The notes beneath the pieces were generated by a model. That model saw only the letters and a program-made list of their open reading frames with translations, did no database searches and was not told where the DNA came from. The position numbers and the translations under genes are program-made. 62,459 bases of DNA. It comes from an uncultured bacterium (lineage in GTDB: Bacteria; Patescibacteriota; Minisyncoccia; Phycocordibacterales; CAWITU01). The DNA is taken from NCBI GenBank assembly GCA_963839205.1, contig CAWITU010000006.1, positions 1 to 62,459 of the forward strand, given 5' to 3'. Numbering within the stretch: the stretch's first letter is position 1; each line of letters starts with the position of its first letter. Below are positions 9,683 to 62,459 of this stretch, piece after piece.

Positions 9683-12376
9683 ATGAAAAAAGCTTTTATC
9701 TCGGTCTTATTAGGAGGAAGTACCTTCGCCCTAGGTTTATTCCTCGTGGGTCACGCTCTTGTCTTTGCTGCTGCCGGCACCCCACCAGTTCCTGGCAACC
9801 TAATCACCAATGCCCAAATGCAGAGTGCCTCGACGTCCCCCAATAGTCCTGATAATTGGACTACAGGTGGTTATGGATCAACAACCATAACTTATAACTA
9901 TCCACTGCCTGGGCCACAACCTGGGGACGTTGCTGCGAAAGTTACTTTGTCCAATTATGTAAATGGAGCAGGTGAATGGTTTTTCCAAAATGTTCCTGTC
10001 GTAGGTAAAAACGTATATCAATTTGCAGATTCATACAATTCAGATATTGAAAGTAATATTATCGCTCAATGGACTTTGAGTAATGGTTCATTTGCATATG
10101 ATGCCATTGCGACACTCCCACCAACTAATGGTGCATGGGCAAATACTCCACAAGAAGTTTTTCCGGCTCCAGCTAATGCGGTTTCGGTTACCGTTCTTCA
10201 TTTGATTACAAATACTAACGGTACTCTAGAGACCACAAATTACGCACTCACAAATTATGTTCCAACTGGCCAAGGTGCTTTTTCTAAAGCTATGGTGTCA
10301 TTAACTTTTGACGATGGATACACATCACAATTCTTTAACGCTAATCCAATTTTAAGTGCCGCTGGTATTCCAGGAACCTATTACATAATTACTGATCCAA
10401 TTCTTGAAGCAACAGCCAATCCCTCAGTAAATATGTTTATTGGCTCTGGTATTTCAACTTCAACTGTTACCTCTACATCAACCGTAAAGTGGGGAGACAT
10501 CACTAACTCTGGTACAGCTGGGGCAATATACACTGACCCAACTTACCAAATTTATACATTTACTGACACTTATACATCCACAGCTTCAAGTTCTATAACA
10601 GTTGATTACTGTTCCGTTGCCACCGTTGGAAACTGTGCTCCAGGGAATGTACTCGCAATGAATATAGGTTCGGTGCCAGCGGGTAATAATTTACAGACTG
10701 ATATTTCATTTACTCTTCCAACCATAGGGGGTAATACCGTAACACCAATCAGTATTATTCAAAGCCTAAATCAGAGTGGTTCAATTACAGTTTCAAATCC
10801 ATCACTTGTTGAGTATCAAACTTATATGACTGAATCTGAGCTTCAGACCCTCCAAGCTGAAGGTAATGAAATAGACTCGCATACAAAAACACATCCAGAC
10901 CTAAGCTTGATAACATTAACCACAGCAAGTTCGACTGACGAAATTCTTGGTTCACGTACGGCGCTATTATCTTTTGGAATGACTCCAGCCGACGGCTTTG
11001 CTTATCCATTTGGAAATTACAATACTAGTGTTAAACAGATGGTTGGAAGTTCTGGATATGATAATGCTCGAACAGTAGACGTCGGTTTCAATTCAACATC
11101 AAGCGACCCGCTACTTCTTAAGAGTGAGAGTGTCACTGCATCCACAACATTAGATACCGTTGAATCATGGATTGATACAGCAGTCGCAAATAAATGGTGG
11201 TTGGTAATTACTCTTCATGATGTTGACCCAGCAGATATCATTGCTAAGAATGGCGAAACTTATGCTGTTACGCCAGCCATGCTCCAAAGTATTGTCTCTT
11301 ATCTTAAGAGTGCTAAGCAGAGTGGTAGCTTAAATGTTACAACTATGGATCAAGGTCTTGCTGTGTTAAATAATTCAACGCCACCACCTCCACCACCAGT
11401 TCCAACGATTGCAATTACTCCGACAACATTACCTAATGGAACCGTTGGTACTTCGTACAGTCAAACACTATCCGCATCAACGACTGCCACAGGTCCATTC
11501 ACTTGGTCTGTTTCATCCGGCTCATTACCTCAAGGTCTAATACTTAACGCTTCTTCAACAACAATTTCTGGAACTCCAACAACGGCTGGAACATCAACAT
11601 TTAATATTTTTGTGACAAATGGTACCGCATCAACAACAAAAACTTATAGTATAGGTATCAATAGTGCACCGGTAATAGGCACACCAATCACAATCACCCC
11701 AACAACCTTACCTAATGGCACCGTCGGCACCTCATACAGTCAAACCCTAACCGCATCTACAACTGCCTCAGGTCCATTCACTTGGACAGTTTCATCAGGT
11801 ACCTTGCCACAAGGTCTAACCTTTGATGCATCGTCAACAGCTATCACCGGAACTCCAACTACTGCAGGGTCATCCAATTTTAACGTCACAGTTACTAACG
11901 GTACCGCTTCAACTACTCAGCCGTATAGTCTAACTATTGATGCTGCGCCAGTTCAGTCTTCTGGCGGGGGTGGTGGCGGAGGAGGTGGTAGTGGCGCAGC
12001 TGTTTACTATTCTGGTGGCGGAGGGGGTGGAGGATCGTATTCCTCCTCGGTCTCAACTACCACTAGTACGACAACACCAACTGTTGTAATCATCGGAAGT
12101 TCAACTCAATCAACAACGACTCCAACCACAACACCACCAGTTTTGTCACTATTCCGATTCACACATTATCTATATTACGGCCTTCATCATCCAGATGTAA
12201 TGGAACTACAAAAGCGATTAATGTCCGAAGGGTTCTTTAATGGGCCAATCACTGGTTACTTCGGACCACTCACTAGAGCTTCTGTAATGGCCTATCAAAG
12301 AAGTCATCACATCTCTGTGGTTGGGAGCGTTGGCCCGCTTACCCGAGGATCGCTCAATGAGAGTTTTGGAGGATAG
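9683..12376 (+). CDS. Secreted multidomain cell-envelope protein: NodB-type polysaccharide deacetylase, 2 Ig-like repeats, Gly-rich linker, peptidoglycan-binding domain
   Basis: Signal peptide. TFDDGY and DSHTKTHPDL deacetylase motifs. Two ~93-aa repeats (TPTTLPNGTVGTSYSQTL...GPFTW.VSSG.LPQGL). G8/G7 runs. C-terminal PG_binding_1-like YYGLHHPDVMELQKRL...GYFGPLTRASV. Confidence 0.8.
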   Translation: MKKAFISVLLGGSTFALGLFLVGHALVFAAAGTPPVPGNLITNAQMQSASTSPNSPDNWTTGGYGSTTITYNYPLPGPQPGDVAAKVTLSNYVNGAGEWFFQNVPVVGKNVYQFADSYNSDIESNIIAQWTLSNGSFAYDAIATLPPTNGAWANTPQEVFPAPANAVSVTVLHLITNTNGTLETTNYALTNYVPTGQGAFSKAMVSLTFDDGYTSQFFNANPILSAAGIPGTYYIITDPILEATANPSVNMFIGSGISTSTVTSTSTVKWGDITNSGTAGAIYTDPTYQIYTFTDTYTSTASSSITVDYCSVATVGNCAPGNVLAMNIGSVPAGNNLQTDISFTLPTIGGNTVTPISIIQSLNQSGSITVSNPSLVEYQTYMTESELQTLQAEGNEIDSHTKTHPDLSLITLTTASSTDEILGSRTALLSFGMTPADGFAYPFGNYNTSVKQMVGSSGYDNARTVDVGFNSTSSDPLLLKSESVTASTTLDTVESWIDTAVANKWWLVITLHDVDPADIIAKNGETYAVTPAMLQSIVSYLKSAKQSGSLNVTTMDQGLAVLNNSTPPPPPPVPTIAITPTTLPNGTVGTSYSQTLSASTTATGPFTWSVSSGSLPQGLILNASSTTISGTPTTAGTSTFNIFVTNGTASTTKTYSIGINSAPVIGTPITITPTTLPNGTVGTSYSQTLTASTTASGPFTWTVSSGTLPQGLTFDASSTAITGTPTTAGSSNFNVTVTNGTASTTQPYSLTIDAAPVQSSGGGGGGGGGSGAAVYYSGGGGGGGSYSSSVSTTTSTTTPTVVIIGSSTQSTTTPTTTPPVLSLFRFTHYLYYGLHHPDVMELQKRLMSEGFFNGPITGYFGPLTRASVMAYQRSHHISVVGSVGPLTRGSLNESFGG
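11398..11955 (+). repeat. Tandem ~279-bp coding repeat (2 units) inside the surface protein
   Basis: The unit starting ~11414 recurs at ~11693 and encodes near-identical Ig-like modules. Confidence 0.85.
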
Positions 12377-16195: not shown

Positions 16196-17287
16196 TTGCT
16201 ATCTTTCTATCTATCATATTTATAATACTGCTTTTAGGGCATACGCTCTTGTATTTTTTTGTTGTTAGTATTTTTTCTGTTTCGAATCCAATTATCCTAC
16301 TTGATTTGAAACTGCTAACGGTTCTTCTGTCGCTTACTTTTATTTTAGGATCTGCCGGATCATCTGTACAAAATAATCTTGTTACTAGATATTTTTATCG
16401 AGCGTCTGCGGTTTGGCTTTCATTTTTCATATATCTATTTTTTGGAGCGGTTATTTATTATATTGCTTTGATTTTTGGTGCATCTGTAATTTCGGGTCAG
16501 GTACTCTTAGTTTTAGCACTTGGTTTGTCTTTATACGGATTGATTCACGCTCAAATTATTAAAAAAGTTCATATCAAAATTAACTTACCTAATTTGCCAG
16601 AGTCTTGGATTGGTAAAAAGGCGGTATTTTTAAGTGATTTACATTTGGGGCAGGTGAGAGGTAAGAAATTTTTAGAAAAAATTGTCTCAGTAATTCAGAA
16701 GGAATCTCCTGATATTATTTTTATTTCCGGTGATATTTATGATGGGGTTAAGGTTGATGCTCAAGATATCGTCTCTCCATTTAGAAATCTGAGTCCAATT
16801 CATGGAATATTTTTTGTGATGGGGAATCATGAGGAATTCAGAGAGAATAATGGTTACTCTGAGGCGCTCCGTTCAAGTGGGGTCAAAATTCTTGAAGACG
16901 AACTTGTTGTTATTGATGGTAGTTCAAATTGTTGGAGTTGATTACAAAACTACCGAGAAAAGAAGTGATTTTGAAAAAGTACTCAGTTCGCTTCCAATTG
17001 ACGCCAACCTTCCTTCGATTCTATTGAAACATGTGCCGTCTAATTTGGATGTGGCCGAAAAGCGAGGCATAAGCCTCGGCCTTTTCGGCCACACTCACCG
17101 AGCCCAAGTTTTCCCTTTTAGTATTATTACCCACTTTGTTTACAAAGGTTTTGACTACGGTCTTAAAAAATTAGGGAAGATGCAGGTCTACACATCATCT
17201 GGGGTTGGAACTTGGGGACCTCCAATTCGAGTCGGTTCTAATTCAGAGATTGTTATCTTGAATTTCTCTATTGCAAAATCTGCTTAG
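16192..17287 (+). CDS. Membrane-anchored metallophosphoesterase, one frameshift near 16900
   Basis: Calcineurin-like motifs LSDLHLG, SGDIYDG, GNHE and GHTH across ORFs 16192..16941 and 16829..17287. Confidence 0.75.
17050..17093. repeat. Intragenic nested hairpin in the metallophosphoesterase gene (13 + 6 bp)
   Basis: TGTGGCCGAAAAG-CGAGGC-ataa-GCCTCG-gc-CTTTTCGGCCACA, coding ...VAEKRGISLGLFGHT... Confidence 0.9.
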
Positions 17288-17503: not shown

Positions 17504-18247
17504 ATGGCTACCAAACAACAGATACCCGTACTCGCAGGGGCAATAGTGAGTAAACAAGAGAGTTTCGCCGCTCTCCCCGACAAAGATGCCCAATGGGCTA
17601 TCGAAAACACCGACGAAGCGATTCGTCTTGCCGTCGAGGCAATTCAGAATCGTGGAGGTTTCATCAAACGGAGAAGCAAGATGCCGATCGAGATTGATGA
17701 ACAGCTCAAACTGTGGCAGGAGTTCTACGAACTCTACTTCGGACTCGAAGATGTCAAAACCATCGACCCCGAGCGTCCCAACCCGTCAGTTCGGTTCAAG
17801 CAGCTTGTTGTCGTCGCGAAGGGTATCACTCTGAACGACGTACTCAAAGCCATGCGGACTAAGATGAAGGTGTGGAGCTACACCGAGGACCTCAACAGTG
17901 CTGTTCCCACCAATGAGCGCTCCGCCGACAAGGGTCACTATGCGATCTATGTCCGGGACACCATCGAAGCCGACGAAGAGCTTCGTAACACCTCGGTCAA
18001 TGAAATCGCCAAAAAGAAAACGGCGACGATGACACTCCTCGAGCGCATGCTCTTGGAACTCTTCATCTTTCATTGGACAGGTGAACACCTGGACGTGAAG
18101 AACGTTACTCTCTGTGCAGGCTCGCGTGACTCGGACGGCGACGTCCCGGGCGTCGATTGGTGCGACAACGAGGTTCGGATCAGCTGGTGCCGCACCGACG
18201 ACTCCGGCGACGATCTCCGAGCTCGTGCAGTGCAGTTTGTCGGATAA
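17504..18247 (+). CDS. Orphan hypothetical protein on a higher-G+C patch
   Basis: 247-aa ORF with coding-like composition and AAAGGA 8 nt upstream of the ATG. No motif I recognise. All overlapping ORFs look like shadows. Confidence 0.55.
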   Translation: MATKQQIPVLAGAIVSKQESFAALPDKDAQWAIENTDEAIRLAVEAIQNRGGFIKRRSKMPIEIDEQLKLWQEFYELYFGLEDVKTIDPERPNPSVRFKQLVVVAKGITLNDVLKAMRTKMKVWSYTEDLNSAVPTNERSADKGHYAIYVRDTIEADEELRNTSVNEIAKKKTATMTLLERMLLELFIFHWTGEHLDVKNVTLCAGSRDSDGDVPGVDWCDNEVRISWCRTDDSGDDLRARAVQFVG

Positions 18248-18401: not shown

Positions 18402-18750
18402 TGGCTTGGATCGGGTAATCGCCCCTGCGTAGCTTTAGCGAAGCAGGGGAGGAAAGTCCGAACACTTGTCAGCCATGTTGGCTAGACAGCAGAGTAGCGG
18501 GTAACGCCCGTCTGGAGCAATCCAAGAGGTGCGAGCAGAGACGCCGGTATCCGAAAGGGTAGGGCATCCTTATGGGATGAGTCTGTTATAGCAAATAGAG
18601 AGTGAAACGGCAAAATCCTTACTTAAGTGCAAGGCCGTGCCCCAATGGGGAGTGCCGCTTGATTCCAAAAGTAATTTTGGAACTAGATAAATGATTATCC
18701 ATGTCTACTTTGGTAGGCTGGACAGAATTCGGCTTATAGATCCAAGTCCA
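18402..18750 (+). ncRNA. rnpB: RNase P RNA, bacterial type A
   Basis: P1 CTTGGATC/GATCCAAG and the conserved GAGGAAAGTCCG, GGGTAACGCCC and ACAGAATTCGGCTTATAG blocks. TATAAT at 18390-18395. Confidence 0.85.
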
Positions 18751-18756
18751 TACATG

Positions 18757-24222: not shown

Positions 24223-25426
24223 ATGTCGATATCTTTTAAGATTGAGAAGAAACTAAAAGGGAAACTTGGAAGAGCCGGCGTTTTAACGACTCCTCATGGG
24301 GAGGTTAAAACGCCGGCTTTTGTTTCTGTCGGAACCAAGGCGACTGTAAAGGCTATGACTCCTGAAGAAATGAGAGAAGCTAATGTTCAGATTCTAATTG
24401 CTAATACTTACCATCTATATTTGCAACCGGGTTTTGAGATTATCCAGAAAGCGGGCGGAATCCATAAGTTTATGAATTGGAATGGACCAATCATGACAGA
24501 CTCCGGTGGTTTCCAAGCTTTTTCACTCGGCGCCGCTTATGGAAAAAATATTAGTAAATTAGTTAAAGGTGGAGAAGAGTTACTGCTTACCGATCAAGAA
24601 GAAAAAAGGATGACGACGAGGCTTTCAAGATTTCTGGTATCGATGAAGGTGGAGTGATGTTTCGATCAATTATTGACGGAAGTGCACATTACTTCACACC
24701 TCAAAAATCAATTGAAATTCAGCATGCACTAGGCGCAGATATTATTTTTGCTTTTGATGAATGTACTTCACCTACTGAACCGATAAATTATCAAAAGCAG
24801 GCATTAGATAGGACACATCGTTGGGCAAAGAAGAGTTTGGAACATCATGAAAAACTAAAGATCGAGATCAAGCATTATTTGGAATTGTACAAGGAGGCAG
24901 GCATGAGGAACTTCGTAAAGAAAGTGCAAAGATAATTGGTGATATGAATTTTGCTGGTTTTGGTATAGGCGGTTCTTTTGCAAAGGAAGACATGAGTACT
25001 GCTGTTGAATGGGTGAATGGTATTCTTCCAGAGGGAAAACCTAGACATCTTTTAGGAATTGGAGAGCCAGCAGATCTTTTTGGAGCAGTTGAAAATGGAT
25101 GTGATCTATTTGATTGTGTGACACCTACTCGATTGGCTCGAAATGGTACTTTGTATACAAAAACTGGGAAAATAAATATTTTTAATGCTAAGTTTCGAGA
25201 TGATTTCTCGGAGCTAGATATTGGTTGTGAGTGTTATGCCTGTAAGAATTTTACGAGGGCATATGTTTCTCATCTTTTTAGATCTGATGAAATATTGGCT
25301 TCAACTCTAGCCTCAATTCATAATACTTATTTTTTGAATTCCTTAGTCGGAAAAATGAGAGAATCAATCTTGAATGATTCGTTTGAGGATTTTAAAAAAG
25401 AATTCTACTCCGAGTACGTTTCTTAA
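24223..25426 (+). CDS. tgt: Queuine tRNA-ribosyltransferase, two frameshifts (~24650 and the A-run ~24855)
   Basis: [33 protein letters not shown] (seen after a frame switch), GFGIGG, and the zinc site CxC..C...H across three ORFs. Confidence 0.85.
24273..24318. repeat. Intragenic hairpin in tgt (15-bp perfect outer stem + 4 bp)
   Basis: AGCCGGCGTTTTAAC-ga-CTCC-tcatgg-GGAG-GTTAAAACGCCGGCT, coding [17 protein letters not shown]. Confidence 0.95.
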
Positions 25427-34373: not shown

Positions 34374-34431
34374 GGTACTATTGTCTGGCCTATACAACCC
34401 CTAAGCGCTAATGCCGGGGTATTTATCCTAT

Positions 34432-37035
34432 ATGCCAAACAAGGATTCAAAAAATTTAAATAATAACGATGAGTTGATTATTAAAGGTGCTCGAACTCAT
34501 AACCTTAAAAACATCACTGTTTCTATGCCTAGAAACAAGATGATTGTTTTTACTGGGCTTTCGGGATCCGGTAAATCATCTTTGGCTTTTGATACTATTT
34601 TTGCGGAAGGGCAGAGAAGATATGTTGAATCACTTTCTTCGTATGCTCGACAATTTTTGCGTCAAATGCAGAAGCCAGATGTTGATGAAATAATTGGACT
34701 TTCTCCAGCTATTTCAATAGATCAGAAATCAAGATCAAATAATCCGCGTTCGACGGTGGCGACTATCACTGAAATTTATGACTATTTGCGCGTGCTCTAT
34801 GCTCGAGTTGGTAAACCTCATTGTTTAATTTGCGGAAGAGAAATTAAGAAACTTTCAAAGGAAGAAATTATGGATGCTATTTTGACGACCGTGAGATCAA
34901 TTGATATTACCGGGAAGGAGAAAAAAATAATGGGGGTTAATTACTCTAGTGCTAAGTTTCAAATTCTGGCTCCACTTGTAATCGGTCGCAAAGGTGAATA
35001 CTACCAACTTCTTTATGATCTTTTGGGTAAGGGTTATGAATCATGTTTTGATTGATGGTTCACTCAAAAAACTTCGTGAGCAAATCATTCTTTCAAAAAA
35101 CAAAAAACACGATATTGATGTGGTGGTTGATGAATTTTATTTCTCCGAACTTCACGAAAACAAAGCCGGGTTTACTGAACGGTTAAGTGAATCAATTGAA
35201 AAATCATTGGAAGAATCGGATGGTCTGATTCGTATTCGTACGGGCGAGGAAAGTCATTTGATTTCTTCAAAATTCATGTGTCCTTACGACGGTTTCTCTT
35301 TCCCAGAAGTTGAACCACGTCTATTTTCATTTAATTCTCCGTATGGAGCATGCCCAGAATGTAATGGCCTAGGTACAAGACATTTTTTTGGTAATGAACC
35401 ATGTCCTGTATGTAATGGAGCACGTTTAAGACCAGAAGCTCTACACGTCTTTCTTGATACGGAGAAAAAAACTAACATTGTTAATTTGGCAGAGATGTCT
35501 ATTAAGAATGCTATTCATTTTTTCAAAACGCTTAAACTCTCTGCGAAAGAAAAAGAAATATCTAAAGTACCTATTCGTGAAATTCAATCACGTCTGATAT
35601 TTATGGAAAATGTCGGTATTGAATATTTGACGCTTGATAGAAGGGCAAATACTCTGTCCGGTGGGGAAGCCCAAAGGATAAGATTAGCTTCTCAGCTTGG
35701 CTCTGGTCTTGTAGGAGCACTCTACGTTTTGGATGAACCAACAATAGGTCTTCATTCTCGTGATAATGATCGGCTGATTAAAACTCTTTTGAATTTAAGA
35801 GACATGGGCAATACCATAATTGTGGTTGAACACGATGAAGATACAATTTTCTCATCTGATTATATTGTTGATATTGGCCCAGGCGCCGGAGTTCATGGTG
35901 GCCATGTCGTTGTTTCAGGATATTTGGATAAGCTCTTAACCGCCAAGAAAAATGATTCTAAATCATTGACCCTTGCTTACTTAAGAGAGGAGGAAAAGAT
36001 AGAAGTTCCAAAAAAGCGCCGAACTGAAAATAAAGGATCTCTTAAAATTGCTGGAGGACATATTTTCAATATTAAAGAATATGAATATTGAAGTTCCCGC
36101 TAGCAAAATTAATTTCCGTAACTGGTGTGTCTGGTTCGGGAAAGTCCTCATTCGTGTATGAGATTATTCATAAAAATCTTCAGGCTAGATTTGAGATGAA
36201 ATATAGAACCAATGATGTTTTTAATTGCTCCTCGTTTACTGGGACTGAATATGTTAATCGTTCGATTTTGATTGATCAGTCTCCAATTGGTAGAACTCCA
36301 AGGTCAAACCCAGCCACATATACTGGCGCTTTCACTCATATAAGAGATTTGTTTGCTTCTACGGCTGAAGCTCGAGCCCGTGGCTGGAAAGCCAATAGAT
36401 TCTCATTTAACGTCAAAGGTGGACGCTGCGAAAATTGTGACGGTAATGGAATGATTGAAGTTGAAATGCATTTCTTGCCGACAGTTTATGTTACTTGTGA
36501 CGTCTGTAATGGTAAGAGATTTATGAAAGAAACGCTTGAGGTGAAATATAAAAAGAAAAATATTTACGATATTTTACATATGACGGTTGAGGAAGCCCTG
36601 ACTTTCTTTGAGGATATTCCATCAATCTATGATCGAATTAAAACTCTTGATGAAGTGGGTCTTGGGTATCTGGAACTTGGACAATCTGCTACAACGCTTT
36701 CTGGTGGGGAAGCTCAGCGCGTTAAAATTTCTTCAGAACTTTATAGGCCACATCTTCAGAAGACAATTTATTTACTAGATGAGCCGACTATCGGTCTTCA
36801 CTATGAGGATGTTCGAAAATTAATAGAAATATTGGATAGATTAGTTTCGAAAGGAAATACAGTAATTGTTATTGAACATAATATGGACGTGATTAAGAGT
36901 TCAGATTACGTAATTGATATTGGTCCTGAAGGGGGAGATGGTGGTGGTAATATTGTAGCGAAAGGAACTCCAGAAGAAGTTGCTAATTCTCCAAAATCTT
37001 ACACTGGAACGTATTTAAAAAGAGTTCTTAGATAA
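34432..37035 (+). CDS. uvrA: Excinuclease ABC subunit A, at least 3 indels
   Basis: Three consecutive ORFs carry the UvrA ABC and zinc-finger motifs. Junctions are ~35040 and 36075-36100. At the latter, AAAG and CCC each carry one extra base relative to the reading ...[29 protein letters not shown]. Confidence 0.9.
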
Positions 37036-37366: not shown

Positions 37367-38659
37367 ATGATACAATATATTAATAATAAGTCAATGAGTT
37401 ATCCACAAGCCAATTTATCGATAAAAAACAAAGTTAATAAGCTCCCAGATACTCCTGGAGTTTACTTTTTTCTAGGTTCAAAAAAAGAAATACTTTATAT
37501 CGGCAAAGCCACTTCACTTAAAGACAGGGTGAAGAGTTATTTTTCAGGAGGACTATTTGAGGCTAGAGGTCCACTTATTTAAAAGATGGTCGGGGAAGCC
37601 AAAAGTATAGATTTTAAAAAGACTGATTCAGTACTTGAAGCGGTTTTGCTAGAAGCTGACTTAATAAAAAAATTCCAACCTAGATATAACACTAAAGAAA
37701 AAGACGATAAGAGTAATAATTGCGTTGTCATAACAAAAGAGTCATATCCGAAGATTTTAATTGTTCGTAAAAAAGACCTCACCGAACTTAAAGCTTCAGG
37801 TCAGAAATTTAAAGATGTTTTTGGCCCATTTCCATCGGCTGGAATTTTACGCGAAGCTCTAAAAATTATTCGAAAGATATTTCCATACCGTGATGAAAAA
37901 TGTGTTTCTTACGAGGAACAAATTAATAAGGGAAAAGTTCCAAAACCCTGTTTTAATCGACAAATTGGTCTTTGTCCTGGTGTTTGCACTGGTGAAATAT
38001 CAAAAATAGATTATGCAAAAACTATTAGAAATATAGAACTTATGTTTCAGGGTAAGAAAGATAGACTAATTCAAAAACTTGAAAGGGAAATGAAAGTTTC
38101 TGCTAAGAAAAGGGAATTCGAAAAAGCTGGTGAGGCTAGAAATAATATTTATGCACTAAAACATATCCAAGATGTTTCCTTGGTTAAGGTTGACGATTCT
38201 CCCTCTGTCCCGGCCGAAACTTTTAGGATTGAATCTTATGACATTGCTCATATGGGTGGAGGAAATACTGTTGGCGTAATGGTAGTTTTGGAAAATCGTC
38301 TTGCTAAAAAGGATGACTACAGAAAATTTCGGATTCGACAAAAGACAGGTGGTGATGATCTTGCTGCGCTCAGAGAAGTTATCACCAGAAGGTTGGGACA
38401 TCCAGAGTGGCCGACAGCTGATCTTGTTGTAATTGACGGCGGCCCGACCCAGCTTCGGGCCGCCGAGAGTCTTTTCCCAGAAAATACTAAAATAGTTTCG
38501 GTAGTTAAGGATGCAACCCATAAACCTGATCACATTCTCGGGAACCCAGAAATTATCAATAAATATAAGAAGGAAATCCTTCTTTCAAACTCTGAATCCC
38601 ACCGCTTTGCTATTGCGTATCATAGGAAAAGAAGGGGTAGTACTTTTAAAAAAGTGTAA
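37367..38659 (+). CDS. uvrC: Excinuclease ABC subunit C with an in-frame TAA at 37580-37582
   Basis: GIY-YIG N-terminus (PGVYFF...ILYIGKA) and ORF 37586..38659 are in the same frame, separated by a single stop (...[16 protein letters not shown]...). Confidence 0.85.
38437..38465. repeat. Intragenic GC hairpin in uvrC (11 bp)
   Basis: CGGCGGCCCGA-cccagct-TCGGGCCGCCG, coding [11 protein letters not shown]. Confidence 0.9.
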
Positions 38660-38667
38660 AAAATAGG

Positions 38668-38696
38668 TTGACAAACTAGATTAAACTTGTTAATAT
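38668..38696 (+). promoter_or_regulatory. Near-consensus sigma-70 promoter with extended -10
   Basis: TTGACA, a 17-nt spacer ending in TGT, then TAATAT. Confidence 0.65.
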
Positions 38697-38702
38697 ACAC
38701 TA

Positions 38703-39006
38703 AATTCGAACCATGATTTTTGATATAGATTTGGAACGGGGATGGAGTCAAACAAGGCTAGCCCACCTTTGCTAGCTTAATGTTCGTCGCTCGGGCCGCC
38801 TCGATTGCTGTGGGTTTTTCATCCGAAGTTTTGCCGTTTGGTTTACGGCTGGGTGCTTTACCACTTGCGGTTGTGCCTACGGGCCTCTGTCTCTACACGG
38901 ACTCTGTCGTTTGGTTGGGCTCTACTAGGCCTGACCGAGTCGAAAAGCGAACGACTGGTAATCCTGTCCGCCCCTGGAACTACTTCGTCCCCGTTCCCAC
39001 GTTTTA
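38703..39006 (+). ncRNA. Candidate structured RNA of unknown family (GC-rich, 16-bp closing helix)
   Basis: 38733-38748 GGAACGGGGATGGAGT pairs with 38982-38997 ACTTCGTCCCCGTTCC. There are 16 pairs, and 2 G-U pairs are valid only on the plus strand. Internal hairpins at 38755-38778, 38833-38849 and 38935-38958. GTTTTAT follows the helix. No convincing ORF. Confidence 0.45.
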
Positions 39007-39168
39007 TATAAGCCGTCACTTTATTATGCAATTTTGTTGGAGGGAGGACCTTCAGGACTATTGCTAAATATTGTGGCGGCTTTTTCCATGCCCGTTTTTG
39101 AATTATATTTGTTCGGATTACGTGTAAGCCAGCTTCCACATATCTTCGCCAGCTATTATAATGATTGC

Positions 39169-40144
39169 ATGTCAAATAATATTAGAGTGGCAGTTCTCCG
39201 CGGTGGCCCATCAAGTGAATATGAAGTGTCTCTCAGAACTGGCTCTGCTGTTTTAAAAAATATTCCTGAAAAATATAAAGCATACGATGTCTTCATAGAT
39301 AAAGAAGGTAATTGGAATTTTGAGGGAACCAGAATCCAACCTTATGAAGTTGGTAGTCGAGTAGATGTTGTTTTTAACGCTCTTCATGGAGAATATGGAG
39401 AAGACGGCAAGGTCCAAAAGATTCTTGAGGATCACGCAATTCCATTTACTGGTTCAGGGTCATTAGCCTCGGCCATTGGGATGAACAAGTCACTATCTAA
39501 AAATTTCTTTAAATTTGCTGGAATAAAAACAGCTATCCACTTAGTCATAACTCAAGACGAAGCCACCCCCGAAAAAATACTTGAAATTTTTAAGACATTT
39601 CCTCATCCATCAATTGTGAAGCCGGTTTCAGCTGGATCATCAGTTGGGGTATCAATTGTGAGGACTTTTGATGATTTACCAATAGCCCTACAAAAAGCTT
39701 TCAGTGTTTCTCCAATAGCGATGATTGAAGAATATATTGATGGTGTAGAAGCAACTTGTGGAGTCATAAGTAAATTTCGAGGTAAGGAAGTTTATTCACT
39801 TCTTCCAATTGAGATTAGAAAACCAAAATCAAAAAGTGTTTTTGATTATGAAGATAAGTATTCGCCAACCTCTGGAGCAGAAGAAATTTGCCCAGGCAAT
39901 TTTTCAGAAGATGATAACAAACTATTCAAGAAGCCGCCAGAGATATTCACCAAGCTCTTAATTTGAGACATTATTCTCGATCTGATTTCATTGTTCATCC
40001 TAAAAGGGGAGTCTATGCACTTGAAGTAAATACCTTACCAGGGCTTACTGAAAGTTCACTTGTGCCAAAATCACTTGCTGCGGTTGGCTGCACGCTTCAG
40101 AGTTTATAGACCATCTAATTGGTTTGGCTTTGAATCGTAATTAA
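39169..40144 (+). CDS. ddl: D-alanine--D-alanine ligase, two frameshifts near the 3' end
   Basis: MSNNIRVAVLRGGPSSEYEVSL..., ATP-grasp core. The tail ...LRHYSRSDFIVHPKRGVYALEVNTLPGLTESSLVPKSLAAVG...EFIDHLIGLALNRN is recovered by switching frames. Confidence 0.85.
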
Positions 40145-40167: not shown

Positions 40168-40240
40168 GGGCCCTTAGCTTAGTTGGTAGAGCGCCTCATT
40201 TGCAATGAGGAGGTCACCGGTTCGAATCCGGTAGGGTCCA
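40168..40240 (+). tRNA. tRNA-Ala (anticodon UGC), no encoded CCA
   Basis: Acceptor GGGCCCT/AGGGTCC with G3:U70, anticodon loop TTTGCAA, T-loop GGTTCGAATCC. Confidence 0.9.
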
Positions 40241-41670
40241 CAATCATCAATATTAAAGCGGTTCGCGATCTCTTGAAAGGCCAACGACGGCTTCAATTCT
40301 ACCTTTTTTCCCTCTACCTCTCGGTTCGAGGTGCAGATATTGACCATTTCACGTTTTTCTTCGGGTAATGCCATTTGATGGCTTAACCAAGCGCTTCCAG
40401 CCAGTTCGAGGAATTTTTCCAATCGCTCTGGTTGCTGCGCTGCCGTTAGGCGCCTAAATTTGCCAGATTTTCCTCAACGGCTTTTTGATCAAAAAGCAGG
40501 CTCTTCTTTCTTTCCTCAAACATAATTTTATCGAGGGCCTGATCCAAGTAGGCGTCGGTCAAGCGATTTAGCCTGTCTTTGATTTGGTCGTTTCGTAGAT
40601 TCAGGCTTCTAGTCTCCTCTTCCCGTCTACTTGTCCAGGTCTCTCGCAATCTCATAACTCTGGGTTTTAAATACGCCTTCTCGTCTTCATCAAAGCTAAT
40701 GTGTTCAAAGAAGCGTGCCACCCCTGTCTCGACAGTTTCTTCTCTAACCGCAGTTCTTGGAAAGTGCTTGCTGTGGCACCGATAGTACACATTCCCTTTC
40801 TGCCGCTCACCAACGAGGGAATAGTGACAAGTCGCACAGGAAAGCATCCGACGAAACTGAAATGTATGCCGATGGCTACGAGCATGTATCCTGCCGGTCA
40901 GAACGGCGTGTACGCGATCAAATAATGCCTTTCCTATGAGGGGTTCGTGAATGCCAATAAAGCTCTCGCCGGTCTTTTGAATGTGGATAAGCCCGATATA
41001 AAAGGAATTATTGAGGAGAGTCGTTAATCCGGCCTTGGTTACCCTGCCGCCGTTGCGGTTGTGCAAACCAAGCCGCTGGAGTTCCTCTCCCAAAGTTTCA
41101 AAACTGTACTGAGCACTCCCATACAACTCAAATGTTTTACGAACCAAGGGGCCTTTGATGGGATCAATGGTTTTGGGCATACCTTTGCCTTGATCGACGT
41201 ATCCTAAAGGTGCACGTAATGGATAGAGTCCCTGCTTCAAACGACCGTAGAAGCCTTTGCGGGTTTCCTCCGAAGATTTCTGATGTAATCGGCAGAAACG
41301 ACCGCCTGAATGTCAGCGGAGAGACGCCCACCTCTGGATTGAAGATCGAGGCTTTCGGTTACAAAATGCACTTCGACGCCCTGATCCGACAGTTCGCCAA
41401 TAGCCGCCCAATCTTTCAGATTTCGTGCGCCACGATCAAGTTTGTGCAAAATGATTCCGTGAGACTTTGCAGTACGTAAAAGTTTAAGTGCTTTGTTAAA
41501 TATTGGACGCCCCTGCTTGGCAGCAGTCTCCATCTCTTCAAGCCAAAGAGTGATATTAAATGGTTGCGTTCAGCATAACGCAAAATGGCATCGCGCTGTT
41601 CTTGAAGTGAGACCCCTTTCGTTCCTTGTTTGACAGTGGAAACACGAATGTATCCTATATATTCCTTCAT
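40174..41670 (-). CDS. Large serine recombinase, frame-disrupted (at least 3 shifts); last ORF runs antisense into tRNA-Ala
   Basis: N-terminus MKEYIGYIRVSTVKQ (catalytic Ser), a resolvase domain split over ORFs 41416..41670 and 41237..41533, the recombinase plus zinc-ribbon domain 40446..41240, and the tail ORF 40174..40422. Confidence 0.75.
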
Positions 41671-42028: not shown

Positions 42029-43072
42029 TTCAACAAGTAATTGCAACACTTTGAGATAATCAAGGTGTTATGAAATTTAAACATTTTTCGATCGAGGAGC
42101 GTGAGAAAATACAGGAAATGCTCTGGCAAAAAACCTCGGTCAGAACAATTGCCAGAGCATTAGGTCGAAGTCCATCATCGGTTTCAAGGGAAATCAATCG
42201 CAACATTCCACTAAGGCGGTCATATCGTCCACGACTAGCTAATAATCGGGCAGAAGAGAAAAGAAAGTGTCGTGGTCGGAAACTCAGGTTGAAAAGCTTC
42301 TTTGTGAGGCAGTATGTTGTTACCCAACTTAAAGCTGGATTTTCTCCAGAACAAATCTCCGGCCGTCTCCATTACCACTATCCAGAGGAATCAATCTCTC
42401 ATGAAGCCATATACCAGTACATCTACTCTCAGGTCCATCGAAACGGTCATGGCTACATGAGACCTAACTACCATGACTTACGTCCATACCTCAAAAGAAG
42501 ACACAAAAGAAGAATGCGAAAAGGAATGCGTAAAAGTCAAAGAATCTTCAAGCCTAAAGGCCTATCTATTGAGCTTCGACCAAAAGAAGTCGAACAAAGA
42601 AAAGTCGTTGGACACTGGGAAGGAGATTCGATGATTTCAAGAAAAAGCAAAATCGGCTTGAACACCTTAGTCGAGAGAAAGACCGGTCTGGTCTTCATCA
42701 CAAAGATTTCTGATCGCACCGCAAAAGAAACAAGTGACGCTGTGATCAACAGACTCGGTGCCCTTCCTAAAGAAGTCCGAGAAACTATCACTGTCGACAA
42801 TGGAACCGAAAACTCTGATTACAAAAAAATTGAAACAGCTCTAAACATATCCTGCTACTTCGCCCACCCATACTGCTCAGGGGAACGTGGTACCAACGAA
42901 AACACCAATGGCCTCATCAGGTGGTACTTTCCTAAAGGCACAGATTTTGCGACAATCCCTGATGAGGCCATTCAAGAAGTGGAAAATCGACTTAACAATC
43001 GTCCACGCAAGCGACTTGGATGGAGAACTCCATTAGAAGCATTTAATGAAAGTGTTGCATTTACACATTGAA
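42029..43072 (+). mobile_element. IS30-family insertion sequence with imperfect terminal inverted repeats
   Basis: The left end TTCAACAAGTAATTGCAACACTTT (42029-42052) matches the reverse complement of the right end AAAGTGTTGCATTTACACATTGAA (43049-43072) at 20/24. The right repeat overlaps the transposase stop. No clear target duplication seen. Confidence 0.75.
42070..43071 (+). CDS. IS30-family DDE transposase
   Basis: 333 aa with an N-terminal HTH (...SVRTIARALGRSPSSVSREINRN), HWEGDSMI and DNGTEN blocks, and C-terminal NENTNGLIRWYFPKGTDF...LNNRPRKRLGW. Confidence 0.9.
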   Translation: MKFKHFSIEEREKIQEMLWQKTSVRTIARALGRSPSSVSREINRNIPLRRSYRPRLANNRAEEKRKCRGRKLRLKSFFVRQYVVTQLKAGFSPEQISGRLHYHYPEESISHEAIYQYIYSQVHRNGHGYMRPNYHDLRPYLKRRHKRRMRKGMRKSQRIFKPKGLSIELRPKEVEQRKVVGHWEGDSMISRKSKIGLNTLVERKTGLVFITKISDRTAKETSDAVINRLGALPKEVRETITVDNGTENSDYKKIETALNISCYFAHPYCSGERGTNENTNGLIRWYFPKGTDFATIPDEAIQEVENRLNNRPRKRLGWRTPLEAFNESVAFTH

Positions 43073-43197
43073 TGTACCGGATAAACAGTTGACTTGTAAG
43101 TGAATATATGCTATGTTTATAGTACAAATTTATCGTTTGAAATTAAGTCGATTTTTATAGCAATATTTTGTACTTATTAGAATTTAATTAACCATAC

Positions 43198-43395
43198 ATG
43201 ACAGGAACTATCAAAAAGCTCACTGACAAAGGTTTTGGTTTCATTACATCAGAAGGTATGACAAAAGATCTCTTTTTTCATAGCAATTCTCTTGTTGGAG
43301 TACAGTACGCTGATCTTCACGAGGGAGACACTGTGTCTTTTGAAACTGAAGACGGCCCAAAAGGAATGAGCGCCGTAAACGTTCAGAAAGCATAA
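43198..43395 (+). CDS. cspA: Cold-shock protein (CspA family)
   Basis: 65 aa with RNP1 KGFGFI and an RNP2-like LFFHSNS. Confidence 0.9.
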   Translation: MTGTIKKLTDKGFGFITSEGMTKDLFFHSNSLVGVQYADLHEGDTVSFETEDGPKGMSAVNVQKA

Positions 43396-43421
43396 GCTTA
43401 CAAAATTTGTAACTTACAAAA

Positions 43422-43449
43422 GGCCAGCCCCTTAAGGGGCTGGCCTTTT
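43422..43449. terminator. Bidirectional intrinsic terminator
   Basis: AAAA-GGCCAGCCCC-ttaa-GGGGCTGGCC-TTTT between convergent genes. Confidence 0.85.
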
Positions 43450-43451
43450 GT

Positions 43452-44978
43452 TTATGCAAAACCTGGGAAATAATCTATTTTGATATTAGATCTTTTGACG
43501 CCCATTTTGATCAAGGATTCTTTGTAGGAACTAACCATACCTTGTGGTCCAGAAATATAGAAAATTCTATTCTTGTAATCTGGAACTTCAGCCCTAACCA
43601 TCTGAGCATTGATTGGACCACTATACCCTGCACTTTTTTGATCAGTAATAGCATAGACAGTTTTTATACCCAACTTTCTATAAGCTTCATCAAATACTTC
43701 CTCATAAAGTACGTCGGTAGCAGATCGGTTTGAATACAATAGAACAACATCTCTTTTTTCATTGGTATCAATCAAATATTGAATCATACTTCTAAAAGGT
43801 GTAACTCCAATCCCACCTGCGATAAAGGTGATCTTCTTTTTTTTATTTTTTGGTAAAGTAAAATCTCCAGAAAGTTGGCCAGCCATTATTGATGATCCAA
43901 GTCTCATTGAAAGCAAGGCCTTCTTAAATGAGCTAGCTGGTTCATAAAATTTTATCCCTAACTTAATCTCAGGCTCTGTGGGTGAAGATGAAAGGGTGAA
44001 GTACCTTCGAACACTTCTATTGTCAGGGTCAGCATGTTCAAGAGTTAGTTCCATATATTGTCCTGGCTTGTACTTAATTGGTCTATCGCTCGTATAGGCA
44101 AATTCATATGAGTCAGGGGATAAAGGAATAATTTCTTTGAGCCTTAACATCATTTTATATTTAGGACTGACAATGTATGCAAAAATATTTCCAACAAGAA
44201 GGGCGAGCTCTGGGGTGAAATAGAATGACCCAACACTTACGTTTGGTAAGAATAGAAACCCAACACCCGCACCATATAAAATTCTAAGTAATCTGGATGG
44301 TGGTGTCGTGGCTGGTTCAGTGAGCATCACAGTTCCGAAGAAAAATACTGGAGTATAAAGTAGTGATTGATTTAAGGAAGTTAAAATATTAAGTCCATGA
44401 TCAAAATTAAAATAGGCAATTCCTAAAGTAAATATTCCAATGAAAGATACAAATAAATCAAAGCGATGAATTTTGCGAACGATTAGTAAACCACCAATGA
44501 GTACAAAGGGAACCATAATAGGAGTTCCAATCCACCAGCTTGCTGACAAGCCCAGAACAGCACTCGTTATGGCTACACCAATTGCCGCTGGATTAAATAC
44601 CTGCTTTCCTCTTATAGCTAAAATATATTTAGAGGCCATTGACCAAGCTGAAGCCCAAAAGGCAATTGCTAAAAATTGTAAATCTAATGGGTTTGATGGG
44701 GGAGTAATGATAAGGGCGAGAATAAGAACAGTAATCCAAATTGATTCTGGGTTTGATGGTACTTCAAATATTCGAGCAAATATTTCATTAGTTAGCCAAC
44801 AAACGCAGTAAATTAAAGCAACTGAAAATAATAAATAAATTGGGCCATAAGGCAAAATACCAAAGAAACCAAATATTCCGGCTATAACTAATAAGACAAT
44901 TAATTCATAAACCACCACACGATACATAGTGATTTTATTAAGTAAATCGTCAATAAGTTTTAAAATATTTCTAATCAT
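43452..44978 (-). CDS. Polytopic membrane domain fused to an FNR-like FAD/NAD(P)-binding reductase
   Basis: ~260 aa with about 8 TM helices, then RRYFTLSSSP (the RxYS FAD motif), GGIGVTPF (NAD(P) motif) and C-terminal YISGP. Confidence 0.75.
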   Translation of the reverse strand: MIRNILKLIDDLLNKITMYRVVVYELIVLLVIAGIFGFFGILPYGPIYLLFSVALIYCVCWLTNEIFARIFEVPSNPESIWITVLILALIITPPSNPLDLQFLAIAFWASAWSMASKYILAIRGKQVFNPAAIGVAITSAVLGLSASWWIGTPIMVPFVLIGGLLIVRKIHRFDLFVSFIGIFTLGIAYFNFDHGLNILTSLNQSLLYTPVFFFGTVMLTEPATTPPSRLLRILYGAGVGFLFLPNVSVGSFYFTPELALLVGNIFAYIVSPKYKMMLRLKEIIPLSPDSYEFAYTSDRPIKYKPGQYMELTLEHADPDNRSVRRYFTLSSSPTEPEIKLGIKFYEPASSFKKALLSMRLGSSIMAGQLSGDFTLPKNKKKKITFIAGGIGVTPFRSMIQYLIDTNEKRDVVLLYSNRSATDVLYEEVFDEAYRKLGIKTVYAITDQKSAGYSGPINAQMVRAEVPDYKNRIFYISGPQGMVSSYKESLIKMGVKRSNIKIDYFPGFA

Positions 44979-61777: not shown

Positions 61778-61849
61778 ACTATTTATTGTGGATAACTTTG
61801 GTTGCAAATGGGCCTTGGTGTTATAAAATGGTATCAAGTGGGAAAAGGT

Positions 61850-62310
61850 GGTAACGTGCGCGAAAAAGTGGCTGCCGACCTGAACGCCGGGATAAAATAC
61901 AAACGCGGTAGGCAGAAGCGTGGCGTGGGGGCCGATGCGGACTTGAGGGCCGACAACCGCGTACGCGCCGATGTGGGCGTTTTCGCCGATGATGGGCAGT
62001 TGGATCGATGACGGCAGTCGGATGAATTCCGGGCCGATAAGACGGCGGCTGATAAAAGAGGCCGAGCGCGCGGGAGAAGCGTGGTAGGGATTCTTGATGC
62101 GCAGGGTGGCGGCGGAGATTTCCTGAAATTCAGGTTCGACGAGGACGGCGGCGGCGCGCGTTTTTCGGGCGAGCGCGGTGTAGCGGACGTTGGCGACGAA
62201 GGTGATTTCGGTGGGGCCGGCTTCTTCAATGCCGCTGACGCCGGTAACTGGATGGTCGGGTCGCCGCGGAGTTCCGCGCCGAGCTTCGTTGCTAATTCGC
62301 CGAGGTTCAT
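61850..62310 (-). pseudogene. lpxD: 5' fragment of lpxD (UDP-3-O-acylglucosamine N-acyltransferase), high G+C, truncated with 3 frameshifts
   Basis: The minus strand reads MNLGELATKLGAELRGDPTIQ / VTGVSGIEEAGPTEITFVANVRYTALARKTRAAAVLVEPEFQEISAATLRIKNPYHA / FSRALGLFYQPPSYRPGIHPTAVIDPTA / IGENAHIGAYAVVGPQVRIGPHATLLP... across three frames. This is the typical LpxD N-domain plus first hexapeptide repeats. Similarity stops near 61850, where G+C drops. Confidence 0.7.
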
Positions 62311-62459
62311 TGAGGAAATTGTAAAGGGTTGGGCCCGATCGGCGCGTTTCGGAACTGGTGATCTTCGGGATCGCCGGTGATACGACCCAGGCGATAGGTC
62401 AGGGGCAACTTGACGTCTCGTCACCACTCAGGAGAATTTGCCCTCCGAACTCCCGAGTT

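Follow-up and report, generated by a model that had tools for sequence, protein, structure and literature searches.

The 512-nt spacer between uvrC and ddl (38660-39171) in the genome of an uncultured member of the Paceibacteria (Patescibacteria/CPR) carries a GC-rich stretch of about 350 nt, in which two 16-nt arms pair into a closing helix, P1, that encloses 265 nt. The stretch and its helices are missing from the syntenic loci of the relatives examined, and no homologue was returned from the collections searched. We read it, tentatively, as a MITE-like insertion or the remnant of one, specific to this lineage, probably foreign, and placed before the uvrC terminator. The feature itself is real, but it is an orphan, and a structured RNA is not demonstrable.

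The GC-rich stretch and its closing helix

The window, meaning the whole stretch of DNA that was analysed, is 62,459 nt long, and all of the coordinates refer to it. The features of the locus are collected in Table 1. The next gene downstream of the element is ddl, and its ATG begins at 39172. The hairpin with its U-tract, the third copy of the arm motif and the ddl promoter match do not appear in the preliminary description of this DNA.

Table 1. Features of the uvrC-ddl spacer and inverted repeats inside genes of the window
Feature	Position	Strand	Details
uvrC stop codon TAA	38657..38659	+	translation; tblastn with a relative's UvrC
Sigma-70-like promoter match TTGACA-17-(TGn)TAATAT	38668..38696	+	predicted start near 38703
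Weak direct repeat TTTTTGATATAGATTTG	38717..38733, matching 39095-39111	+	14/17 positions
5' arm of P1 / left inverted repeat GGAACGGGGATGGAGT	38733..38748	+	
Interior, GC-rich and A-poor	38749..38981	+	233 nt; 55% G+C, 15% A; G-U-rich predicted helices
Small interior hairpins	38755-78; 38833-49	+	
12-bp interior helix	38910-21 / 38928-39	+	5 G-U pairs
Alternative interior hairpin	38935-58	+	absent from the MFE structure
3' arm of P1 / right inverted repeat ACTTCGTCCCCGTTCC, then CACGTTTTAT	38982..38997	+	
73-nt imperfect hairpin and U-tract	39010..39087 (hairpin 39010-39082)	+	z -2.98; stem pairing probability 0.7-1.0
Third arm-motif copy AACGGGCATGGA	39085..39096	-	11/12 complementary to 38735-46
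ddl promoter match TCCACA-16-TATAAT	39135..39162	+	9 nt before the ATG
Intragenic inverted repeats	691-708/787-804; 15805-20/15934-49; 38437-38465; 17050-17093		

A patch with a G+C content far above the background had been reported, and this was borne out. The element has 56% G+C and 15% A, versus 39.5% G+C in the window. A scan of the intergenic gaps showed that the focal spacer is the only long gap of the window in which high G+C is paired with a strong folding z-score. Its z-score is -5.5 on the plus strand and -2.2 on the minus strand, and it stands out among the other long gaps, which range from about 0 to -1.8 except for 43069-43454 (z -4.7), where a terminator stem is located. The RNase P RNA encoded in the window served as control, with a z-score of -3.96 at 50% G+C. 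Only in the window is the uvrC-ddl spacer markedly richer in G+C than its surroundings; this is not seen in the loci of the relatives.

The 16 consecutive pairs of P1, two of them G-U on the plus strand, are present as described earlier, and all transcript models gave them a pairing probability of about 1.0. A count across the window of stems that reach 16 bp or more, contain no more than two G-U pairs and span up to 450 nt gave five, versus 0.33 in composition-preserving block shuffles. Therefore, P1 is very unlikely to have arisen by chance. With the limit lowered to 14 bp, the window holds 14 stems against 3.7 expected. Perfect or near-perfect inverted repeats of 13-18 bp also lie inside coding sequences (an M48 peptidase, a DUF192 protein and uvrC), conserved protein regions included; mRNA structure and template-switch mutation are both possibilities for their origin. 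Two of these intragenic hairpins had been noted as sharing 10-mers with the element, possibly by chance, and chance is indeed the level observed: 19 10-mers of the element recur elsewhere in the window, where 22 +/- 6 were expected.

The plus strand had been proposed as the RNA strand, and it does fold better than the minus strand. For 38700-39010, with P1 included, the z-score is -3.40 on the plus strand versus -1.55 on the minus strand, in line with the asymmetry of the whole spacer. Among the mismatches in the arms, 10 of 14 transitions are G-U on the plus strand and four are A-C (p ~0.09), a bias that leans slightly towards selection at the RNA level. The interior behaves differently once P1 is removed. 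Its z-score is -1.27, and 24 of 200 shuffles fold as well. G-U pairs make up 14 of the 70 predicted interior pairs (20%). Complementary segments do exist for each of the three well-formed hairpins that had been claimed inside the element, and one of these hairpins falls outside the MFE structure. Thus, the GC island and the non-chance long-range helix of the structured-RNA reading stand, but a richly structured interior finds no statistical support (z -1.3), and the evidence argues only weakly for a functional or structured RNA. An outer pairing of the spacer ends (38695-38729 with 39100-39126) was dropped as evidence; it occurs in the MFE structure, but its duplex test gave a z-score of -1.0 (p 0.125). 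Among the relatives put through this test of 5' end against 3' end, no more than one or two gave a significant result.

Two signals flank the element on the plus strand. Upstream, the near-consensus promoter match reported earlier is present. However, the window holds 22 matches that score 10/12 or better, against 33 +/- 4.5 in shuffles; there is no enrichment, and the match alone is no evidence of a promoter. Downstream, a hairpin begins thirteen bases past the 3' arm; its 10-bp base stem (AAGCCGUCAC / GUGGCGGCUU) contains one U-G pair. Together with its U-tract, it resembles an intrinsic terminator of the plus strand and probably ends transcription of uvrC and of the element. No other terminator was seen between the uvrC stop and 39010.

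Searches for homologues and comparison with relatives

Rfam, whose families include tmRNA, SRP RNA, 6S, T-box, riboswitches and RNase P, was searched with 38660-39010 and gave no match at the gathering threshold, nor at E <= 10 with lax filters; the matches nearby (39063-39189) are chance only. ARAGORN with default settings reported neither a tmRNA nor a tRNA, and thresholds of 60-70% gave only implausible 'permuted' calls on the opposite strand. A tmRNA was therefore rejected, and the element fits no recognisable RNA family, as had been stated. Rfam searches of the loci of 20 relatives and of two other GC islands returned tRNAs and RNase P only. No homologue of the element was found by nhmmer or blastn in 98 loci and the window, nor by blastn against phage and plasmid records. 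Exact and two-arm patterns returned nothing from viral contigs, and a single 17-mer match (L018) is a chance one. Peptide-pattern scans of viral contigs and JGI metagenomes returned no related copy.

At the protein level, the nearest Ddl is 53% identical and belongs to Candidatus Taylorbacteria (L001), and a search of 5.8 billion protein clusters gave about 60% identity for the nearest UvrC. In exact look-ups, the window's own proteins are singletons or not on record. Since they are singletons, there appears to be no close relative of the source genome in the collections reached.

The reading frames across the element had been described as noise, and the searches agree, with neither homologues nor a Pfam domain. 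Pfam gave nothing for four spacer ORFs. The 95-aa ORF on the plus strand (38780-39067) has no relatives in the 5.8 billion clusters, the viral contigs or the JGI metagenomes. The 105-aa ORF on the minus strand (38858-39175), present in the public record as a 93-aa gene (P0121), matches only itself among 1.84 billion representative proteins and forms a singleton cluster. A six-frame concatenate gave nothing at E <= 1, although the expected self-match to P0121 was also not returned, possibly through saturation of word matches. Both ORFs are open across the island; the first is located between the promoter match and the hairpin, and the second is a predicted protein on record. A horizontally acquired small protein gene in either frame is nonetheless very improbable. 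Besides the lack of domains and homologues, the minus-strand ORF overlaps the ddl promoter and start, the A-poor strand is nearly stop-free by composition alone, and the peptides are either rich in arginine and proline or hydrophobic in a generic way.

The comparison set consisted of 97 uvrC-containing loci from related Paceibacteria. The gene order uvrA-uvrC-ddl-tRNA-Ala(UGC) recurs in them. Across the 51 loci with ddl directly downstream, the uvrC-ddl gap ranges from -2 to 1377 nt; it is 74 nt or less in 17 of them, clusters at 128-143 nt, and is as short as 22-33 nt in L001 and L015/16. No locus shows sequence similarity to the window's spacer, and the spacers of the relatives cannot be aligned with one another at the DNA or the translated level. 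An Rfam family was found in none of them. Of the synteny that the preliminary description proposed to check (uvrC, element, ddl), the gene order recurs and the element does not. Relatives lacking the helices had been named there as an observation that would count against an RNA, and this is in effect what was found, because the syntenic regions lack the element altogether. The nhmmer and blastn comparison proposed for the relatives likewise gave no homologue and, as the relatives lack both element and helices, no conservation or covariation support for an RNA gene.

Many of the relatives' uvrC-ddl spacers have z-scores of -4 to -7.6, often on both strands. In the same loci, 32 control intergenic gaps of 190-700 nt gave a median minimum z-score of -4.2, and 53% of them were below -4. 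Hairpin-dense spacers are thus the rule in this clade, and strong folding is not distinctive. A conserved, fast-evolving syntenic RNA at uvrC-ddl was rejected, since the spacers are not alignable and control spacers fold equally strongly. Long spacers in these Paceibacteria (loci L012-L098) are packed with very stable hairpins that are not conserved, some with z-scores of -9 to -13 on both strands; L093 1120-1722 and L079 4514-4894 are extreme examples. Such spacers may reflect a clade-wide phenomenon of palindromic elements or terminators. A broader version of the RNA reading, in which they are clade-wide fast-evolving structured RNAs or palindromic mobile elements, is possible.

The last 20 nt of the relatives' spacers (L022-L098) carry TGnTATAAT or TATACT, 8-15 nt before the ddl ATG, in nearly all cases; the counterpart in the window is 39157-39172. 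From these motifs, ddl mRNAs throughout the clade are predicted to have no leader or almost none. Because such a motif directly precedes the ATG in nearly every relative, ddl of the window is likewise predicted to be transcribed on its own, from its own promoter, as an essentially leaderless or near-leaderless mRNA. A promoter so close to the ATG argues against a ddl leader or riboswitch. This candidate was rejected, as the promoter is adjacent to the ATG in the window and in the relatives and the element is missing from the latter.

In relatives with spacers of about 140 nt, a hairpin is followed by the ddl promoter. The corresponding part of the window (39010-39171, 162 nt) resembles this common layout. 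Therefore, the extra 350 nt or so (38660-39009) look as if they were inserted between the uvrC stop and the terminator.

The same layout bears on a cis-acting reading, in which the element is a 3'-UTR, a terminator/insulator module or an attenuator that would stabilise or end the uvrC message and uncouple ddl from it. Pairing of 38735-46 with 39085-96 might, in addition, modulate read-through into ddl. The only terminator after the uvrC stop is the hairpin with its U-tract, the 5' arm has two complementary partners, and the spacers of about 140 nt in the relatives show a simpler version of hairpin and ddl promoter. On the other hand, the ddl promoter leaves the element outside the normal ddl leader. 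The alternative pairing has an energy of -20.5 kcal/mol versus -28.8 for P1, and a probability of about 0 in the thermodynamic ensemble. Also, a simple hairpin suffices in the relatives, and 265 nt of additional GC-rich sequence would be left unexplained. We consider this reading improbable.

A stand-alone sRNA gene has better prospects, and we hold it to be possible though doubtful. An orphan transcript of about 385 nt (~38703-39087) would start from the upstream promoter match, contain a 5' domain closed by P1 and end at the terminator. Its role would perhaps be protein sequestration or regulation in trans, and the gene would have been acquired or have evolved only in this lineage. A promoter match, a structured body and a hairpin with a U-tract are all on the plus strand. 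The GC-rich island in an AT-rich genome is comparable with the RNase P RNA in composition and z-score (-3.40 against -3.96), and no other long gap of the window has both high G+C and a strong z-score. Besides, folding is strand-asymmetric, G-U pairs occur in both P1 and the terminator stem, and there is neither a coding signal nor a protein homologue in any frame. Against this reading, the element has no homologue and hence no covariation, and it is missing from the syntenic loci. Its interior is not significantly structured, contains 15% A and relies on many predicted G-U pairs. Promoter-like matches are not enriched, and spacers of this clade commonly reach strong z-scores. The narrower proposal, that an independently transcribed structured sRNA of about 385 nt in one deep-branching Paceibacteria lineage represents a new orphan ncRNA class acquired horizontally by a minimal CPR genome, is slightly more doubtful still.

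Repeats around the element and its origin

The arm motif AACGGGNAYGRA, also written GGAACGGGGAYGRAGT, occurs three times within 360 bp, versus 0.12 expected per window for a pattern that was derived from these same copies. The third copy could be an alternative pairing partner of the 5' arm or a solo terminal repeat. The weak direct repeat has one copy adjoining the left arm and the other adjoining the third motif copy; its local alignment is weak (p ~0.03), and it may be a decayed target duplication. No clean target-site duplication was found at the 16-bp arms, and direct repeats flanking the hairpin at 39010-82 are not significant. Within the 62-kb window, the element is present in a single copy. 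There are no tandem repeats, and a TIGR- or CRISPR-like array was rejected on this ground.

With 16-bp inverted repeats at its boundaries and a third, partial copy nearby, the element resembles a small non-autonomous MITE-like element. As in a MITE, the terminal repeats bound a short stretch, here 233 bp, in which neither a transposase nor a protein homologue was found. On this preferred reading, foreign-looking DNA of 56% G+C would have entered the uvrC-ddl spacer of one Paceibacteria lineage, bounded by the inverted repeats, with a third partial copy 90 nt further on. The insert would have come to lie between the uvrC stop and the hairpin with its U-tract, and ddl would be served by its own promoter. 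A transcript crossing the insert, whether by read-through from uvrC or from the match at 38668, would have its two arms paired, closing off a domain of 265 nt, and would terminate at the hairpin near 39087. The closed structure would then be a by-product of the inverted repeats and not a selected RNA fold.

Several observations are consistent with such an insertion. The gaps of syntenic relatives are as short as 22-33 nt, and their cluster at 128-143 nt is about the size of 39010-39171. No locus shares sequence with the window's spacer, which alone is much GC-richer than its surroundings. Other GC-rich foreign DNA is found nearby (a serine recombinase, an IS30 element and an lpxD fragment). 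The inverted repeat is non-chance, its motif recurs and a weak direct repeat flanks it. Besides, the interior lacks significant structure, G-U pairs account for 20% of the pairs predicted in it, and hairpin-rich, non-conserved spacers are generic in the clade. Other points weigh against a MITE. There is one copy in the window and none in viral contigs or JGI metagenomes. A target duplication at the arms is missing, and the repeat at the alternative boundary is weak. The one transposase of the window (IS30) has unrelated terminal repeats. The element is GC-rich, whereas prokaryotic MITEs are typically AT-rich (PMC10969869). Also, the plus strand folds better, and the arms show the G-U bias described above.

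The inverted repeats could also be read as the boundaries of an inverton, a 233-bp segment flipped by a site-specific recombinase. Inverted repeats of such a length on either side of a few hundred bp, upstream of a gene, are the usual geometry, and a serine recombinase gene is located 1.4 kb away. However, 38749-38981 contains no promoter-like site on either strand, and the ddl promoter is outside the segment. The domains of the recombinase (Recombinase and Zn-ribbon) are those of a large integrase; its gene is frameshifted and adjoins tRNA-Ala as that of an island integrase does. An inverton is extremely unlikely.

Neighbourhood and known systems

Further DNA of unusual composition or condition is located in the same contig. 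Downstream of ddl, a tRNA-Ala(UGC) is followed by a GC-rich (~50% G+C), frameshifted large serine recombinase with Recombinase and Zn-ribbon domains (40168-41670 together), and this stretch looks like the remnant of an integrated island. An IS30-family transposase follows (42029-43072), with 24-bp terminal repeats at 42029-52 and 43049-72. These repeats differ from the arms of the element, and a link between the two was rejected. The contig end on the minus strand (61834-62459, 61% G+C) encodes, once two or more frameshifts are bridged, an LpxD N-terminal domain with hexapeptide repeats (Pfam E=2e-19). As a gene of LPS synthesis is out of place in a CPR genome, this fragment is either foreign DNA or a chimeric contig end. 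The recombinase stretch, the IS30 copy and the lpxD fragment indicate that the contig contains foreign DNA. Elsewhere, a 247-aa ORF (17504-18247, ~52% G+C) without a Pfam domain is located directly upstream of the RNase P RNA gene (18403-18752); it is probably an orphan gene of foreign origin. At 11403-11952, within an 897-aa ORF (9683-12376), two 271-nt units that are 74% identical lie in tandem and correspond to a repeated protein domain.

Several adjacent genes of the window are interrupted. The uvrA gene (34411-37035) runs through three frames that change near 35045 and 36080, uvrC (37367-38659) has an in-frame TAA at 37580-82, ddl (39172-40109) is frameshifted around 39891-39933, and the large serine recombinase is in three ORFs (40446-41670). 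Either widespread pseudogenes or an indel-prone assembly would account for them. The frameshifts in uvrA, ddl and the recombinase, the stop in uvrC and the out-of-place lpxD end also raise the question of whether the island is an assembly artefact, namely a chimeric insertion of reads from a GC-richer organism. We give this a very small chance. Native syntenic genes flank the island on both sides in one contig, its flanks are AT-rich and native-looking with promoter and terminator signals, and short internal chimeras are unusual.

If the element is an insertion, a streamlined CPR genome has tolerated foreign or mobile DNA in one of its few permissive spacers. In that case, the GC island, the helix that closes it and the signals of a promoter and a terminator together mimic an RNA gene, which calls for caution in GC-based ncRNA screens. 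To our knowledge, almost no regulatory RNAs are known in the Paceibacteria/CPR group; if the sRNA is real, it would be a lineage-restricted ncRNA in this group. The hairpin-packed spacers of the Paceibacteria and the inverted repeats inside conserved coding sequence may interest more widely than this locus.

Four kinds of known system were compared with the element. It shares with the promoter-driven retron msr-msd ncRNAs (~150-300 nt) ends that are paired by inverted repeats (a1/a2 in the retron). However, the gene that comes next is ddl and not a reverse transcriptase gene, and there is no Rfam or protein signal, so a retron ncRNA was rejected. The hairpin and U-tract at 39010-39087 have a long stem, like other Rho-independent terminators of the window (such as 24270-24321 and 43416-43451), and the order of hairpin and ddl promoter is that of the hairpin-rich Paceibacteria spacers. 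Unlike terminators, the P1 domain upstream is far larger at 265 nt and has no counterpart in the relatives.

The GC-rich ncRNA genes of AT-rich genomes (RNase P RNA, tmRNA, SRP RNA, 6S RNA and the large orphan ncRNAs from screens of GC content and intergenic-region length) are also GC islands in long intergenic regions. Like the element, they are closed by a terminal helix and carry promoter- and terminator-like signals on a single strand, and the z-score of the whole element is similar to that of the window's RNase P RNA. Unlike these genes, the element has no Rfam match, tRNA-like end, SRP helix-8 motif or 6S layout. It also differs from them in its lack of homologues and covariation, its interior that is not significantly structured and its very low A content.

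Prokaryotic MITEs include Correia, ERIC and QMITE2 of Coxiella; their transcripts characteristically form stable stem-loops, their direct repeats decay with time, and their copy number can be as low as 1 (PMC10969869). The element departs from them in being GC-rich in an AT-rich host and seen in one copy, in having neither a clean target duplication nor a cognate IS with matching ends, and in its long, non-palindromic interior. On the other hand, like prokaryotic MITEs, it is a few hundred bp long, has terminal inverted repeats within their range of 10-50 bp and encodes no transposase. The flanking direct repeats of MITEs may decay, and their copies may be very few, so the weak flanking repeat and the one copy seen here would have parallels among them. 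Like them, it is intergenic and placed beside promoter and terminator signals, and its predicted transcript is a long stem closed by the repeats.
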